Shown: positions 3,616 through 10,376 of the stretch, in pieces | Position numbering within the stretch: position 1 is the stretch's first letter | Layout of the letters: every line of letters begins with the position of its first letter | Virus record (IMG/VR): IMGVR_UViG_3300027706_000225 | DNA from: a virus | Strand: one strand, 5' to 3' | Length of the DNA: 10,376 bases | Translations under genes and position numbers: made by a program | The notes under the pieces: generated by a model | The model's database searches: none | What the model was told of the DNA's origin: nothing | What the model saw: only the letters and a program-made list of their open reading frames with translations

Positions 3616-4200
3616 CCTAGTTAACATGTGACTTGGCACGTTTACGTTGACTGGACGCTTGAGGAGACGCCTCGACCATTTTACGTGGGAAAGGGCACTC
3701 CAGATCGTCTTCGAAAGAAGCAACGTAACATCGTTCACTCTCGCATCGCGAAAAAGTACGGCATGCGACGCGAGGTTGTGTTGACAACTGATGTTGAGCG
3801 TCAAGCGCTTGATGTCGAAGTTCAACTCATTCAAGAACATCGCACGTTTGTGGACGGCGGTACTGGTTGGTGGGGCGCCAATCTTACGTTGGGTGGCGAG
3901 GGCGTTTCGGGCACACACATCAACAAGGGTCGAACGTTCAGCGCCGAACATCGTCAAAAACTCAGTCAAGCTCGTCGTGGCAGGGCGCCTTGGAACAAAG
4001 GACAGCAAAACGTCTACACGGATGAAGCCCTTGCCAAGATCAAGAAAGCACGTTCACGTCAAGTCACATCAACGGAAACGAAGCAGAAGATTGCTGACGG
4101 TGTCCGTCGTTCATGGAGCAAACGATGCGACTGACAATGGGACAGCTTCGAAAACTTCTGCGTGAAGTAGGGGCAAATAATTCGTGGCCGGGCCAGCCGT
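3616..4200 (+). mobile_element. Second low-GC island carrying a free-standing GIY-YIG homing endonuclease gene
   Basis: Composition drops to roughly 50% GC from about 3616 to about 4200. The island holds a single endonuclease ORF inserted between two ORFs of the plus-strand block. Confidence 0.45.
3628..4134 (+). CDS. GIY-YIG homing endonuclease with C-terminal NUMOD3 DNA-binding repeats (I-TevI / Seg-like)
   Basis: The N-terminus VTWHVYVDWTLEETPRPFYVGKGTPDRLRKKQRN...LIQEH...N..GG matches the GIY-x10-YIG, conserved Arg, catalytic Glu and Asn architecture. The C-terminus has two NUMOD3-like repeats, GRTFSAEHRQKLSQARRG and TSTETKQKIADGVRRSW. The only available start is GTG 3628, and the SD is weak. 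Confidence 0.8.
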   Translation: MTWHVYVDWTLEETPRPFYVGKGTPDRLRKKQRNIVHSRIAKKYGMRREVVLTTDVERQALDVEVQLIQEHRTFVDGGTGWWGANLTLGGEGVSGTHINKGRTFSAEHRQKLSQARRGRAPWNKGQQNVYTDEALAKIKKARSRQVTSTETKQKIADGVRRSWSKRCD

Positions 4201-5403: not shown

Positions 5404-6171
5404 CTAGCTCCTAGAGGCTGCCGCGGTCCTTCCTATCAGGGGCAGCGTCAGCACCTCGTAACCCGTCTCAGTCACCAGCACCGTGTGTTCGAACTGCGCT
5501 GACAACGAGCCATCGACGGTACGAACCGTCCACTGGTCAGCGTCGATCGTGATGTCGGCAGTGCCCAGGTTGATCATGGGCTCGATTGTGAACGTCATGC
5601 CAGGGACCAGGATGGGCCCGCCGGTGTGAGCGAAGTGGTTGACGTGGAGCTTGTTGTCATGGAAGATGCGGCCGATGCCGTGGCCACCGAACTCCCGGAC
5701 CACGCTGCACCCGTTGACGTTGGCCAGGCGTTGGATCTCGTTACCCACTGCATTGAGGGGTGCACCCGGTTTGACTTGTTGGATGCCAGCCAACATCGCT
5801 GAGTGGGTGACAGTGATCAACCTCATCGCCTCATCTGAGACCCGTCCGACAGCGACGGTGGCGTTGCAGTCGCCGAAGTGGCCGTCCAGGATCGTCGTCA
5901 CGTCGATGTTGACGATGTCGCCTTCCTTGAGGACGTAGGGACCCGGGATGCCGTGACAGACCACGTCGTTGACGCTGGTGCAGCAGGACTTGGGAAAGCC
6001 TCGATAGTTGAGGGGCGCCGGGCGGCCTCCCCTTCTCACTGTGTCATTGTGGACGATCCGGTCGATGTCTGCTGTCGTCATCCCCGGCCTCACCGAGGTG
6101 CAGGCGAGGTGCAGGGTCTGGGCCGCGTGGCGGCAGGCGGCACGCATCTTGGCGATGTCTATGGGTTGCAT
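5404..6171 (-). CDS. map: Type I methionine aminopeptidase
   Basis: The translation contains the full MetAP-I motif set: VCHGIP, GDIVNIDV, DGHFGD, GHGIGRIFHD, FTIEPM and QFEHT, which supply the five metal-ligand residues D, D, H, E, E. Length 255 aa. AAGGAG sits 6 nt upstream of ATG 6171. Confidence 0.9.
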   Translation of the reverse strand: MQPIDIAKMRAACRHAAQTLHLACTSVRPGMTTADIDRIVHNDTVRRGGRPAPLNYRGFPKSCCTSVNDVVCHGIPGPYVLKEGDIVNIDVTTILDGHFGDCNATVAVGRVSDEAMRLITVTHSAMLAGIQQVKPGAPLNAVGNEIQRLANVNGCSVVREFGGHGIGRIFHDNKLHVNHFAHTGGPILVPGMTFTIEPMINLGTADITIDADQWTVRTVDGSLSAQFEHTVLVTETGYEVLTLPLIGRTAAASRS

Positions 6172-6524: not shown

Positions 6525-6769
6525 GGCACGTAATCCCGGACGTCGTACCAGCCCATCGTGTTGTTGCCGAGAGACACCAGCAAAGCATCCTCCAGGAACT
6601 TGTCAAACCCAATGATCAATGCGACTTCGTTCTTCTGGCTGTACCTCAGGATGCGACCCTTGTTTCCCGGTGAGGTCCGGAAGGAGTGACCCGGTTCAAG
6701 CAGGACCAGGTCACCCGGCCGGGGTGCTCCGCTCTCCGCAAAGAGGCGAACCTTCTTGGTCCGGGTCAT
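6515..6769 (-). CDS. Hypothetical protein (84 aa)
   Basis: ATG 6769-6767 with GGGAGCAGG immediately upstream. Translation reads MTRTKKVRLFAESGAPRPGDLVLLEPGHSFRTSPGNKGRILRYSQKNEVALIIGFDKFLE... It overlaps the downstream gene by 10 nt. The track's TTG start at 6808 lies inside the upstream hairpin and is less likely. Confidence 0.5.
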   Translation of the reverse strand: MTRTKKVRLFAESGAPRPGDLVLLEPGHSFRTSPGNKGRILRYSQKNEVALIIGFDKFLEDALLVSLGNNTMGWYDVRDYVPCP

Positions 6770-6790
6770 CCTGCTCCCATTTAACGGCAT

Positions 6791-6822
6791 CAGGCCGCCC
6801 CAGGACAACCCAGAGCGGCCTG
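6791..6822 (-). terminator. GC-rich hairpin (8-bp stem caggccgc/gcggcctg, 16-nt loop) 19 nt downstream of the flotillin stop; putative intrinsic terminator without a clear U-tract
   Basis: Arms at 6791-6798 and 6815-6822 are exact reverse complements, extendable by G-U and C-G pairs. The hairpin sits in the only sizeable intergenic gap of this minus-strand block. Confidence 0.35.
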
Positions 6823-6840
6823 AATGGAGTCACCTACTGG

Positions 6841-8796
6841 TCAGTCGGACGACTTCTCGGACGGCTTCCGGGCACCGTTGCCGTTGGCCTTGGGCTCGTG
6901 CTTGTCGCCCGTGATCAGGTTGGCGAGTAGGACGCTGGCGAGGTTGTTGATGCCGCCGCCTCCGCCCTCACCGCCACCACCTGCGACGATCTGCGGGACG
7001 AGCGGGTGCTTGCCGTTGGCGAGAGCCCGAGCGACCTCGATCGTGGCGTAGTTGGTCTGGTCGACGGCGAGCGCCTTGGCCTTGATGACCTCGGCTTCCG
7101 CCTGACCGACTGCGGTGATGCTCTTGCCGTTGGCTTCGCCGGTCATCTGGATGACCTTCGCATCGGCCTCAGCCTGGACCGTCTTCGCTGCGGCTTCCGC
7201 CTGGGCGTTGACCGTCTTCACCTTGGCCTGGGCCTCGGCCTTGACGACGTCCATGTCGGCGCTGGCCTTGGCGTTGATGACCATCGACCGCGAGTCACCT
7301 TCCGCCTTCTTCACGGCCTGCTGGGCCTCGAACTCGGCGATGGCGACCTTCCGTTCGGCGTCGACGACCTTGGCCTGCGTGGCGGCAGTCGCCTTCGCCT
7401 GCTCGAGGTCCTTGCGCTTCTCCTCGGCGAGGCGCTGGGTCTCGAAGGTCATCTGCTCCTGCTCGGCGATCTTGCGATCGGTGAGGGTCTTCATCAGCTC
7501 CTTCGGCGGCGTGATGTCACCGATGAGAGTGTCGACGGCGACGACGTTGTAGTCGGCCAACGCCTTGCTGATGGCGTTCTTGGCGTCGTCCTGGCGGTTC
7601 TTGCGGTCACCGAGGAACTTGATGACGTCCGAACCCTGAGCGGCGTTGCGGAAGTAGTTGCCGATCGTCGGCTCCAGGACCTGGGTGACCAGGTTGGCGA
7701 CGTTGCCGAAGCGAGCGATCACCTTCGGAGCGTCCGTCCTGGGGATGTGGATGATCTGCGAGACGTCCAGGTTGAACGTGAACCCGTCGTTGGACCGCAC
7801 CGTGATGGTGCTGAGGTTCTTGTCCAGCATGTGAGCCTCGGTCTTGCCGGTCGCCCAGTTCAGGACGATGTTAGCCGTCGGCACGCTCTCGACCCGGTGG
7901 GTGTACGGGTTGATCGGATAGCGACCGGGATCGAGGGGCTCGGCCCAGACGCCCTTCTCACCCTTGCTGACGAGGTTGCCGTGCTTGAAGGCCTCACCGG
8001 TGACATCGACGCCGGGTTTGCCGACGAAGGCGATGACGCAGCCGGCGTGAGCGATGGGCACCTCGGTCATGTCGACTTCCTCGACCGTGGCGAACAGTGG
8101 GTTGATGAAGTACCGTCCCGCCAGGATCACCTGCTCTTGCAGGCCCTTCTTCCCTCCGTTGTCGAGGAAGATCTGCGGGTTCTGGTACATGTTGTGTCCG
8201 GAGATCTCGGGACCCGCGATGTCACCGGTGTCGAGGGGCGTGCCCTCCTTGGTGGTGACGACGCCGACCTTGTTGTCCTTGATCTCGGTGCAGTTGCAGA
8301 GGTTGACCTCGAACAGGCCGGTGTTGATGCGGTACTGCCCGGGCGGGATGATGGCGAGCTGTGGACCACGTTCGCCGCCGCCCAGCAGGAACTGACGAGC
8401 GTTCTGGAACGAGTCGCACTCGACCGTCTTGCCGAGGATGCGCCCGCCGCTGATCGCCTTGCCATCGCGGCTGGTGACGACGCCGAGCTTTCCACGCTCG
8501 ATGGTGATGAACTTCTGGATGTCGATCTGGTACTGCCAGGGCCACAGACCGAAGTGGATGCCCGGGGGCAGGGTGTCGGCTTGGACACCGGCCTCACCGT
8601 TGAGAGCGACGATCGCTCCGTCGGGGAGTGCCTTGTTGGCGCCGAAGAGGACGAACTTCTTGGTGACGATGCCGATGGCGTCTTCGGGGATGCTGACCAT
8701 CCCGAACAGCCTCAGCACGAGCCGGTGCAGGACCAGCGCGAGGAGGACGAGGATGCCTCCGACGATGAGGGGCAGGTGGGAAACGACGGATTCCAT
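6841..8796 (-). CDS. Flotillin-family SPFH (band 7) domain protein, YqiK-like (651 aa)
   Basis: ATG 8796. The protein has an N-terminal TM helix (LPLIVGGILVLLALVLHRLVL), an SPFH core (STITVRSNDGFTFNLDVSQIIHIPRTD...RKNRQDDAKNAISKALADYNVVAVDTLIGDITPP) and a long flotillin-type EA/AK-rich coiled coil (AKATAATQAKVVDAERKVAIAEFEAQQAVKKAEGD...AEAQAKVKTVNAQAEAAAKTVQAEADAK). A Gly-rich tail follows (GGGGEGGGGG). Confidence 0.8.
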   Translation of the reverse strand: MESVVSHLPLIVGGILVLLALVLHRLVLRLFGMVSIPEDAIGIVTKKFVLFGANKALPDGAIVALNGEAGVQADTLPPGIHFGLWPWQYQIDIQKFITIERGKLGVVTSRDGKAISGGRILGKTVECDSFQNARQFLLGGGERGPQLAIIPPGQYRINTGLFEVNLCNCTEIKDNKVGVVTTKEGTPLDTGDIAGPEISGHNMYQNPQIFLDNGGKKGLQEQVILAGRYFINPLFATVEEVDMTEVPIAHAGCVIAFVGKPGVDVTGEAFKHGNLVSKGEKGVWAEPLDPGRYPINPYTHRVESVPTANIVLNWATGKTEAHMLDKNLSTITVRSNDGFTFNLDVSQIIHIPRTDAPKVIARFGNVANLVTQVLEPTIGNYFRNAAQGSDVIKFLGDRKNRQDDAKNAISKALADYNVVAVDTLIGDITPPKELMKTLTDRKIAEQEQMTFETQRLAEEKRKDLEQAKATAATQAKVVDAERKVAIAEFEAQQAVKKAEGDSRSMVINAKASADMDVVKAEAQAKVKTVNAQAEAAAKTVQAEADAKVIQMTGEANGKSITAVGQAEAEVIKAKALAVDQTNYATIEVARALANGKHPLVPQIVAGGGGEGGGGGINNLASVLLANLITGDKHEPKANGNGARKPSEKSSD

Positions 8797-8869
8797 GTGT
8801 TCTTTCTTCTTTCAGATGTGCGAAAGCCCCGGCCGCCACAAGGACGACCGAGGCTGTTCGCGGTTGGGA

Positions 8870-10376
8870 TCAGGCTCGGGCCGACCGGCTCGCGCCGTTC
8901 GAGGCCTCGGTGCCCTTGGTCAGGGTGGCGAGCTGGTTGCCCAGCACGGTGCCCTTGAGCAGCTCGTTGAAGATCTCGGCGACGCCCTTCTTGCCACCGC
9001 CGATGATGGCCAGGGGCGCCATCGCTTCGGCGAGCTTCTCGGCGAGAGCCTTGTCTCCGAAGGCCTGGAGAGCCGCGATGAACGCCGGTTCGATGGCCTT
9101 GCCCTTGTCGACCGTGGCTTGGACCTGGGCCGCGAGCTTCTCGAGCTCGAGCGCCTGGAGCTGGGCCTGGTGAGCACGTTCCGAAGCCTGGCGGGCTTCC
9201 TGGGTCGCCAACTCGAGAGCCGCGACTTCCGCCGCAGCCTTCTCGTTCGCCAGGTTGTTGGCCGCACGGGCCGCGTTCGCCGCCGCTTCCGCAGCGAGCT
9301 GGTCGGCCTGCTGCTTGGCGTTGTTGGCGATGAGCGAGAGGTCGAGAGCGAGCTTCCGCTCCGCGTTGATGCGCTGCAGCTCGAGGGTGGCGCGCTGCGT
9401 CTCCGCACGGGCCTCCTCGGTCGCACGCTTCAGCTCCTCGGTCTCCTTCACGAAGTCCAGCTTGCGCCGCTCTTCCGCGAGGACGAGGGTGTTCTGGATG
9501 ACGGACCGCTGCGCGGCGACGAGGAGCTTCTCGACGTCGGCATTCTGCATCTCGATGCCGAGGACCTCGGCGTCGTAGATCCGCATGTTGTTCTCGGGGA
9601 ACACCGTGCCGGTGCGGGCCTCGTCCTTCGAGTGCTTGGCACCGAGGATGATGTCCCGGAGGATCGGGGTGTGGTTGCCGTAGAACTCCTCGATGCCCAG
9701 CTTCTGCACCGCCGAGCGGATGCGAGACCGCATCGCGTCGCAGAGGAACTTGACGTAGTTGTCCACCGCGAACCAGCGCTCGGGGTTGTCACCCTCGAAG
9801 TTGACGCGGTAGGAGACCTTGACGTTGAGGCGGCAGAAGTCCTTGGTCTCGACCTGGATGACGTCGCTGACCATGTTGTTGGCGACCTGCAGGTACACGT
9901 CGCGCTTCAGCTGGTCGGTCGACTTCGGCTTGCCCGTCGAGAGCGAGAGGACCTGCGGGTTCTCGTCGTACTCGAGCATGTAGGTGCCCGGACCCTGGAT
10001 GACCCGGCGCTGGCCGCCCTTGCTGACGAGCAGCATGGCGTAGCCGGTCCAGAGCGTCACGGCGACGGCGCCGTCGTACTTGGTGTTGAGGATGACCGAA
10101 CGCGGAGCGGTGAACTTCGACTTGCGGTCGAAGGCGTCGCCCGGCAGCGCGTTGCTGGCGTTCTTGATCAGGACGCGGCCGCGAGAGAACTCCCTTAGGA
10201 AGCGCGGGATCGTCGTCCGGTCGCGCTCGCCATAGAGCCAGCTCGGGCGGATGACCGTCAGCGGCAGTTTGCCCGCGTCGGCGAGGTCCCAGAGAATGCG
10301 CTCGCAGTCGACCTTGCTGCGGGTGTAGTAATCCATGAACCAGACGTTCTGTCCCAGGGGCTCGGACTCGTCCACA
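8870..10376 (-). CDS. SPFH-like domain protein with C-terminal Ala/Glu-rich coiled coil; partial. The N-terminal visible part resembles the C-terminal half of an extended-SDR NAD-dependent epimerase/dehydratase
   Basis: The frame is open from the window end to TGA 8872-8870. The SPFH-like core reads VIQVETKDFCRLNVKVSYRVNFEGD...MRSRIRSAVQKLGIEEF...LRDIILGA, preceded by a hydrophobic segment (AVAVTLWTGYAMLLV). The coiled coil reads KLDFVKETEELKRATEEARAETQRATLELQRINAERK...LAAEAAANAARAANNLANEKAAAEVAALE. The visible N-terminal 110 aa carry YTRSK...LPLTVIRPSWLYGERD...IPRFLREFSRG, an SDR-like Y-x3-K / YG / IPxFI pattern. Confidence 0.7.
   Translation of the reverse strand, partial: VDESEPLGQNVWFMDYYTRSKVDCERILWDLADAGKLPLTVIRPSWLYGERDRTTIPRFLREFSRGRVLIKNASNALPGDAFDRKSKFTAPRSVILNTKYDGAVAVTLWTGYAMLLVSKGGQRRVIQGPGTYMLEYDENPQVLSLSTGKPKSTDQLKRDVYLQVANNMVSDVIQVETKDFCRLNVKVSYRVNFEGDNPERWFAVDNYVKFLCDAMRSRIRSAVQKLGIEEFYGNHTPILRDIILGAKHSKDEARTGTVFPENNMRIYDAEVLGIEMQNADVEKLLVAAQRSVIQNTLVLAEERRKLDFVKETEELKRATEEARAETQRATLELQRINAERKLALDLSLIANNAKQQADQLAAEAAANAARAANNLANEKAAAEVAALELATQEARQASERAHQAQLQALELEKLAAQVQATVDKGKAIEPAFIAALQAFGDKALAEKLAEAMAPLAIIGGGKKGVAEIFNELLKGTVLGNQLATLTKGTEASNGASRSARA

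Follow-up and report, generated by a model that had tools for sequence, protein, structure and literature searches.

A phage-encoded major vault protein paired with a YqiK-like SPFH gene, and a probable chimera with a planctomycete SDR gene at the contig end

The major vault protein (MVP) has long been regarded as eukaryotic, and its function is still unsettled. Bacterial homologues were described in 2013 (Daly et al., PMC3762200), those of the human-gut Caudoviricetes ctOa11 and ct2Ri15 in 2023 (Santos et al., 10.1101/2023.11.10.566534), and MVP-like genes have also been described in Borgs (10.1101/2024.11.05.622173). The usual vault partners TEP1, PARP4 and vault RNA were not found in the gut phages (10.1101/2023.11.10.566534). 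In this work, we analyze a stretch of viral DNA (IMG/VR record IMGVR_UViG_3300027706_000225), hereafter called the window, which is the whole of a 10,376-bp JGI contig (P0001). This 10.4-kb contig belongs to a high-GC huge (jumbo) bacteriophage and carries, on its minus strand, part of an MVP gene, called here gene B, followed by gene A, which codes for a YqiK-type SPFH/flotillin-like protein; the outermost part of gene B derives from a planctomycete SDR gene, and is very probably joined to the phage DNA by an artefact.

The two genes correspond to consecutive open reading frames (ORFs), A at 6841-8796 (651 aa) and, upstream of it, B at 8870-10375 (501 codons), the latter truncated by the contig end and still open where the window stops. 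An earlier note, made from the letters alone, had described both products as large proteins combining an SPFH core with a coiled coil. Both frames are there, and each ends in a helical tail rich in Ala, Glu, Lys and Gln (the summed fraction of these residues peaks at 0.54-0.66, at aa 451-550 in A and aa 351-450 in B), but Pfam detects a Band_7 domain only in the downstream protein, A. The upstream gene, also taken for flotillin-like, proved to be something else: by its domain content and sequence matches, gene B is the C-terminal half of an MVP homologue, not a flotillin.

The native part of gene B (8870..10165, minus strand), as delimited with Pfam and phmmer, comprises the last ~431 codons and the stop of a phage MVP gene. 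Within it, the end of a linker together with repeat R9 takes up aa ~71-160; the shoulder occupies aa 166-276 (window 9548-9880) and the cap helix aa ~281-427, followed by the C-terminal cap region. The shoulder is recognized by Pfam as PF11978 with an E value of 3.4e-30 (104.9 bits versus a cutoff of 25), and R9, the only MVP repeat inside the window, as Vault_3 with 30.5 bits versus a cutoff of 28.8. By phmmer, aa 121-426 align to aa 476-794 of rat MVP at 2e-21, and human MVP is matched too; the rat alignment, running as far as aa 794, covers the cap helix, and gene B is rich in the four tail residues over aa 301-450. A hydrophobic segment, which had been pointed out in gene B (aa 102-120), is conserved beta-strand sequence of R9 (GAV..TLWTGYAMLLV) with a mean Kyte-Doolittle value of 1.15, and not a membrane span. 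An NCBIfam search gave nothing useful for protein A or B.

Overall, gene B is 44-64% identical to MVP-like proteins of 830-877 aa, and ~94% identical to the full-length protein P0127, a member of the same 90%-identity cluster. Of the MVP repeat domains (R1-R9; PF01505/PF17795), R1-R8 fall beyond the contig end, but they are present in P0127 and in two related contigs, L138 and L139. For another full-length relative, P0005, the AlphaFold2 (AF2) model has high confidence in R9, the shoulder and the cap helix (pLDDT 78-92), the last being a single helix of 136 residues (pLDDT 77-92). A Foldseek search with the P0005 model returns whole MVP chains (E ~1e-26), then crystal structures of MVP R1-R7 (2e-8), then SPFH cages, the R1-R7 matches supporting these repeats in P0005. 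The MVP shoulder is thus SPFH-like in fold, and the term "SPFH-type core", used in the earlier note, is right for gene B at the fold level.

Eukaryotic MVPs (rat, human and rabbit; 4V60, 4HL8, 9BW5, 9Z4W) resemble the phage protein in R9, shoulder and cap helix, which align in sequence. Identity in the structural alignment is, however, ~17%, and sequence comparison hardly reveals the N-terminal repeats; the protein described here also differs in being phage-encoded, in the presence of a long low-complexity insert that separates R8 from R9, and in a zinc-ribbon N-terminal extension of ~185 aa. Bacterial MVPs (Melainabacteria, Sericytochromatia, Microscillaceae, Riflebacteria) are 815-877 aa long, share the Pfam architecture and are 44-50% identical to the MVP part of gene B, but theirs is a chromosomal or metagenome-assembled genome (MAG) context, while gene B lies in a phage. 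The gut-phage and Borg proteins are likewise full-length homologues, located on tailed-phage genomes or giant extrachromosomal elements, and they group with bacterial MVPs instead of eukaryotic ones. In comparison with the published descriptions of ctOa11 and ct2Ri15, the family analyzed here is found in high-GC environmental huge phages, and features a zinc-ribbon MVP and a YqiK-like neighbour. Among the annotated neighbours, nothing resembling a TEP1, PARP4 or vault RNA partner appeared, although no dedicated test for them was made.

In this phage clade the complete MVP gene encodes ~1,060 aa, including the N-terminal extension. The latter is in frame and conserved in the relatives (L009:10001-10560; L138:4120-4700; L139:4147-4720), upstream of the point that corresponds to the contig end of the window. 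A zinc ribbon, M.KC.MCRGSGWYQ...CPYC.GRG, stands at its start and leads into a low-complexity linker; the Pfam matches of the ribbon, to Anti-TRAP (6e-4) and DnaJ_CXXCXGXG (0.018), are weak. More distant phage MVPs (L005, L140, L142) do not have the extension. In eukaryotic vaults the N-termini of MVP meet at the inner waist, so that the zinc ribbon would lie in the lumen of the vault.

Variations in gene structure were observed in other lineages. In one of them (L143:3639-6311, also L144; the protein is found on 19 contigs) MVP is encoded by two adjacent genes, split within the R8-R9 linker: an N-half of 431 aa, 57% identical to aa 1-418 of P0005, and a C-half of 436 aa (P0046), 66 nt apart. 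The split point is the same boundary at which the junction discussed below is found in the window. P0038 (480 aa) is another stand-alone C-half. The MVP of a Hainich groundwater phage of 227-351 kb (L002/L003:9399-12091) is called as two ORFs, of 199 and 696 aa. As both align to full-length MVP, the gene may carry a frameshift or a stop, or may be split once more.

The outermost 190 nt, at 10187..10376 (minus strand), come, as judged from their matches, from inside a Planctomycetota gene of the extended-SDR type (NAD-dependent epimerase/dehydratase-like). The segments YTRSK, VIRPSWLYGERD and IPRFLREFSRG, at aa 17-66, run in frame and without a stop into the rest of the ORF, which is continuous as the earlier note had reported. 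The likeness to SDR enzymes, also proposed there, extends far beyond chance, the first ~63-64 residues being 91-92% identical to Planctomycetota SDR genes, with E about 1e-39. When the first 64-67 residues were searched by themselves, every match was an SDR protein. The profile search that had been proposed as a check places three SDR models on the same stretch (aa 5-73), all just below the gathering threshold because the fragment is too short: the PF01370-type Epimerase (20.7 bits versus 20.9), NAD_binding_4 (18.0 versus 20.1) and 3Beta_HSD (13.8 versus 22).

The best MAG match, on the 6.26-Mb contig CAWFIC010000003, is 91% identical in amino acids over all 64 residues and 90.5% in nucleotides; a soil metagenome contig (Ga0066388_100681797) reaches 92% in amino acids, other Planctomycetota MAGs 86-88%, Singulisphaera and Tautonia 60-68%. 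The neighbours of the planctomycete SDR genes are ordinary bacterial ones, such as RND efflux, FGE-sulfatase and aldo-keto reductase genes. In common with extended SDRs (PF01370; Planctomycetota, Isosphaeraceae-like MAGs, Singulisphaera), the piece features the YxxxK region, YTRSK (aa 17-21) aligning with the catalytic motif, and the strands that follow. It is, however, an internal piece of ~64 residues only, and no enzyme as it stands. The Rossmann N-terminus (TGxxGxxG) falls beyond the contig end, homologues carrying VLVTGATGLLGSHL ~150 residues upstream. At the other side, full planctomycete SDR proteins are ~340 aa long and read ...PVDESEPLGQNVWFMDYYTRSKVDCERILWDLAGAGRLPLTIIRPSWLFGERDRTTIPRFLREFGRGRVLI-LGKGDNPLSAVYAGVVADA..., followed by ~125 more residues; in the window these C-terminal ~125 residues are replaced by MVP, a cut in the middle of the domain.

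An SDR gene located near MVP in the related phage contig L005 (326 aa) is unrelated to the fragment, the best local E value being 0.62, and fragmentary SDR matches of 76-116 aa (P0121-P0126), which could be mistaken for small phage genes, result from frameshifts in bacterial contigs assembled from error-rich long reads.

The transition between the two parts was located by aligning the window with the ENA contig L001 (ERZ27279671 k141_609427, 32,878 bp), with L009 and with five planctomycete loci. It coincides with a 21-nt motif, TCTCGCGGCCGCGTCCTGATC, at 10166..10186 (minus strand), which includes a NotI palindrome and encodes SRGRVLI, and not with the interval of about 10040-10100 where the earlier note had placed it. 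L001 carries exactly protein A and, compared base by base, shows 0 mismatches with the window over 10,186 nt. The two diverge exactly at TCTCGCGGCCGCGTCCTGATC, the leftmost stretch still common to both, which in turn resembles the planctomycete SDR version, CGCGGCCGCGTGCTGATC. The 40 bases of L001 upstream of the junction are unrelated to the window (33 mismatches) and encode YAAVAAVATPAGAS, the low-complexity R8-R9 linker of MVP. The same linker precedes the RGRVLIKNAS-type sequence in full-length homologues, as in P0004 (YAAVGAVATPPAGRRGVMIKGSS) and P0002 (YGAVAAVATPEAHRRGFTIKGSS); P0127 contains ...NEAYAAVAAVASPSGASRGRVLIKNASNALPGDAFDRKSKF... here, and reads ...YAAVAAVASPSGAS|RGRVLIKNASNALPGD... 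at the junction point. SDR genes read ...IPRFLREFGRGRVLI|LGKGDNPLSAVY... across the shared RGRVLI motif, and full-length SDR homologues go on with ...RGRVLI(L/V)GKGDNPLSAVYAGVVADA.... Here, then, the phage MVP gene and the planctomycete SDR gene both code for (S/G)RGRVLI in one and the same frame, their DNA being nearly identical, and any crossover inside this shared stretch keeps the frame, hence the seamless ORF.

Taken at face value, gene B would be a fixed SDR-MVP fusion, with the SDR in place of R1-R8 and displayed on a mini-vault made of R9, shoulder and cap helix. The continuity of the ORF is compatible with this possibility, as is the start of the MVP part at a natural domain boundary, and other phages do have stand-alone MVP C-halves of 436-480 aa starting in the same linker. 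Yet the SDR lacks its last ~125 residues, being cut within the C-terminal part, its DNA matches bacterial chromosomes at 90.5% identity, and no such fusion is found among the 120 best MVP homologues, none of which contains an SDR Pfam domain. Moreover, the otherwise identical ENA contig has the native MVP linker, and a full-length MVP occupies the same syntenic spot in all three close relatives (L009, with ~94% identity, and L138 and L139, with ~75%). A genuine fusion of SDR and SPFH domains, as claimed in the earlier note, is largely refuted by the ENA contig, and we regard it as extremely unlikely.

These same observations, namely a native sequence in an otherwise identical contig, full-length MVP in the relatives and no SDR among the 120 homologues, indicate that the end of the contig is a chimera, produced during either assembly or library construction, with the breakpoint at TCTCGCGGCCGCGTCCTGATC. 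The same conclusion is drawn from the cut within the C-terminal part of the SDR, from the loss of R1-R8 that MVP would suffer, and from the position of the foreign 190 nt at the very end of the contig. Considering the two origins together, we hold a chimera to be highly probable. A piece of a planctomycete SDR gene would have been attached through the 21-nt stretch, identical or near-identical in both genes, giving rise to a false continuous ORF. Under simple assumptions, a genome of ~370 kb is expected to share by chance tens to hundreds of 21-mers, and thousands of 18-mers, with 10^8-10^9 nt of other DNA. Both assemblies break within 40-190 nt of the junction. When IMG/VR was searched with the terminal 43-mer of the window and with a 30-mer across the junction, 0 matches were found for each, indicating that no longer copy of the contig is present in that database.

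Some points weigh against a chimera. Composition does not flag a foreign origin, the GC content at third codon positions (GC3) of the SDR piece (0.905) being equal to that of the phage genes (0.908 +/- 0.047). The known SDR relatives share CGCGGCCGCGT-N-CTGATC with the phage, a match of only 17/18 nt at the junction, and the exact parent is not among them. The judgement was made on assembled contigs, and the ENA and JGI contigs may stem from the same reads. Finally, the ENA contig ends 40 nt upstream of the junction, and the native continuation in this strain is deduced from the relatives.

A different explanation would place the junction in real DNA: illegitimate recombination at a microhomology of ~18-21 nt would, as a rare event, have joined the phage to the chromosome of a planctomycete, perhaps its host; the product would be neither a normal gene nor a functional fusion. 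Microhomology-mediated joins do have this appearance, the equal GC3 values of phage and SDR piece would fit a host among the planctomycetes, and planctomycete and phage co-occur in the sample by construction. However, the native linker in the contig identical over 10.2 kb restricts such a recombinant to a subpopulation at most, the contig stops only 190 nt into the SDR gene, and the IMG/VR searches yielded no further contig carrying the junction. We therefore consider this origin improbable, and retain the assembly or library chimera as the preferred explanation. The SDR piece shows that an Isosphaeraceae-like planctomycete co-occurred with the phage. The equality of GC3 also hints, though weakly, at Planctomycetota as a possible host of the phage.

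Gene A (6841..8796, minus strand), assigned on the basis of Pfam Band_7 and of PHROG 200, encodes a YqiK-type SPFH/flotillin-like membrane protein of 651 aa. It comprises a transmembrane helix (aa ~8-30), four beta-rich repeats (aa ~34-306), the Band_7 domain (PF01145; aa 283-461, 5.7e-28, 98.6 bits versus a cutoff of 23.6), a long helix rich in Ala, Glu, Lys and Gln (aa ~432-594) and a Gly-rich tail. The Kyte-Doolittle maximum, 2.6 at aa 10-28, points to an N-terminal membrane anchor. The helix that follows the SPFH domain is ~145 residues long, and the AF2 model, from which the secondary structure was taken and whose confidence is low (pLDDT 58.8), shows helices at 2-30 and 432-577. Homologues, which JGI names YqiK, are found in many bacteria as chromosomal "SPFH domain-containing protein / YqiK" genes, with 52-63% identity, and copies on related huge-phage contigs are 80-95% identical; SPFH proteins of phages already form PHROG 200. 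A sequence search of the PDB gave weak matches to QmcA, prohibitin and flotillin-2.

With the known YqiK and flotillin proteins (E. coli YqiK family; QmcA 8Z5G; flotillin 9BQ2/9L3G) gene A shares the anchor, the Band_7 domain and the long C-terminal coiled coil, but it differs from them in being phage-borne and in the ~270 residues of beta-rich repeats located between anchor and SPFH domain. These repeats (window 7879-8697, minus strand) are marked by a recurring motif, PG.Y.INP...V...GVV..G. Foldseek searches with the AF2 model rank full-length MVP (1e-8) and MVP R1-R7 (2e-4) ahead of prohibitin and flotillin, a ranking to be taken as a lead only, given the low confidence of the model. The YqiK-like family may thus share MVP-type repeats.

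An MVP gene followed by a YqiK-like gene is a conserved pairing in this clade of huge phages. The order MVP, Band_7 and, further downstream, methionine aminopeptidase is kept in the window and L001, L009, L138 and L139, and more distant MVP-bearing phages are without the Band_7 neighbour. A scan of 6600-10376 for promoters and terminators found no site on the minus strand, including the spacer of 73 nt between the MVP gene and gene A (8797..8869, minus strand). A site-free spacer is compatible with co-transcription of the two genes, for which it is weak evidence.

Phage and bacterial MVPs are already known. The analysis establishes the domain content of the gene pair, its conservation and its synteny, and the role of the two proteins is inferred. 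Repeats, shoulder and cap helix, the parts used for vault assembly in eukaryotes, are all retained in the phage MVP, which is likely to assemble into a vault-like shell during infection. For the YqiK-like protein, the probable assembly is an SPFH cage anchored in the membrane, similar to the solved QmcA, HflK/C and flotillin complexes. The earlier note had thought of paired flotillin-like scaffolds; both genes do code for a cage or scaffold protein belonging to the SPFH structural class, but one of these proteins is an MVP. A more elaborate scheme can be drawn, in which the zinc-ribbon MVP and the YqiK-like protein with MVP-like repeats would jointly build a vault-like compartment, possibly tethered to or cooperating with an SPFH cage, with the zinc ribbons holding a luminal cargo (nucleic acid or a host factor); this we consider doubtful.

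The huge-phage setting is deduced from the distribution of the relatives and from their gene content. Relatives of gene B are located on viral contigs in IMG/VR measuring 72 kb and 369 kb, the larger (IMGVR_UViG_3300005529_000001) being the nearest scaffold for a complete genome of this phage, other ones on groundwater contigs of 227-351 kb, and gene B also matches the "uncultured phage" GenBank records LR756500-3, of 462-735 kb. Neighbouring genes in the MVP-bearing relatives are of phage type, and include T4-type small proteins, PD-(D/E)XK and Endonuclease VII nucleases, DNA methyltransferases, an intein-split Pol III alpha, and DnaB with Pol A. High GC content, MVP and methionine aminopeptidase could also have pointed to a giant eukaryotic virus; this origin was dropped on account of the relatives, which are phage contigs in IMG/VR and carry T4-type genes along with those for DnaB, Pol III and Endonuclease VII.

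A phage-encoded methionine aminopeptidase (Peptidase_M24, 4e-49) lies at 5404-6171 on the minus strand of the window, and is kept downstream of MVP in L002/L003, L009, L138, L139 and L142, with 57-86% identity. On the plus strand, an Endonuclease VII/HNH ORF of 188 aa lies at 1069-1635, and an ORF of 168 aa containing NUMOD3, with a degenerate GIY-YIG-like start and uncalled in the ENA gene set, at 3628-4134. The presence of homing endonucleases, mentioned in the earlier note, thus holds, in the sense that both ORFs are of homing-endonuclease type. Both fall in local dips of GC content (0.49-0.57 versus 0.60-0.66). An Endonuclease_7 ORF is found in one of the relatives L002 and L003 and not in the other, as expected of mobile homing genes. 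In the related phage contig L005, of 88 kb, DNA polymerase III alpha (L005:16640-22552) is distributed over three ORFs with intein/Hint domains, with an endonuclease-like ORF between them.

The SDR-SPFH fusion should not be propagated; it is an example of how a short sequence, shared in frame by two genes, can produce a seamless but false fusion ORF. What the locus does contain is an MVP encoded by environmental huge phages, which in this clade features an added zinc ribbon, with a flotillin-like gene conserved next to it. Vaults of bacteria or phages would make the question of what these shells do tractable.

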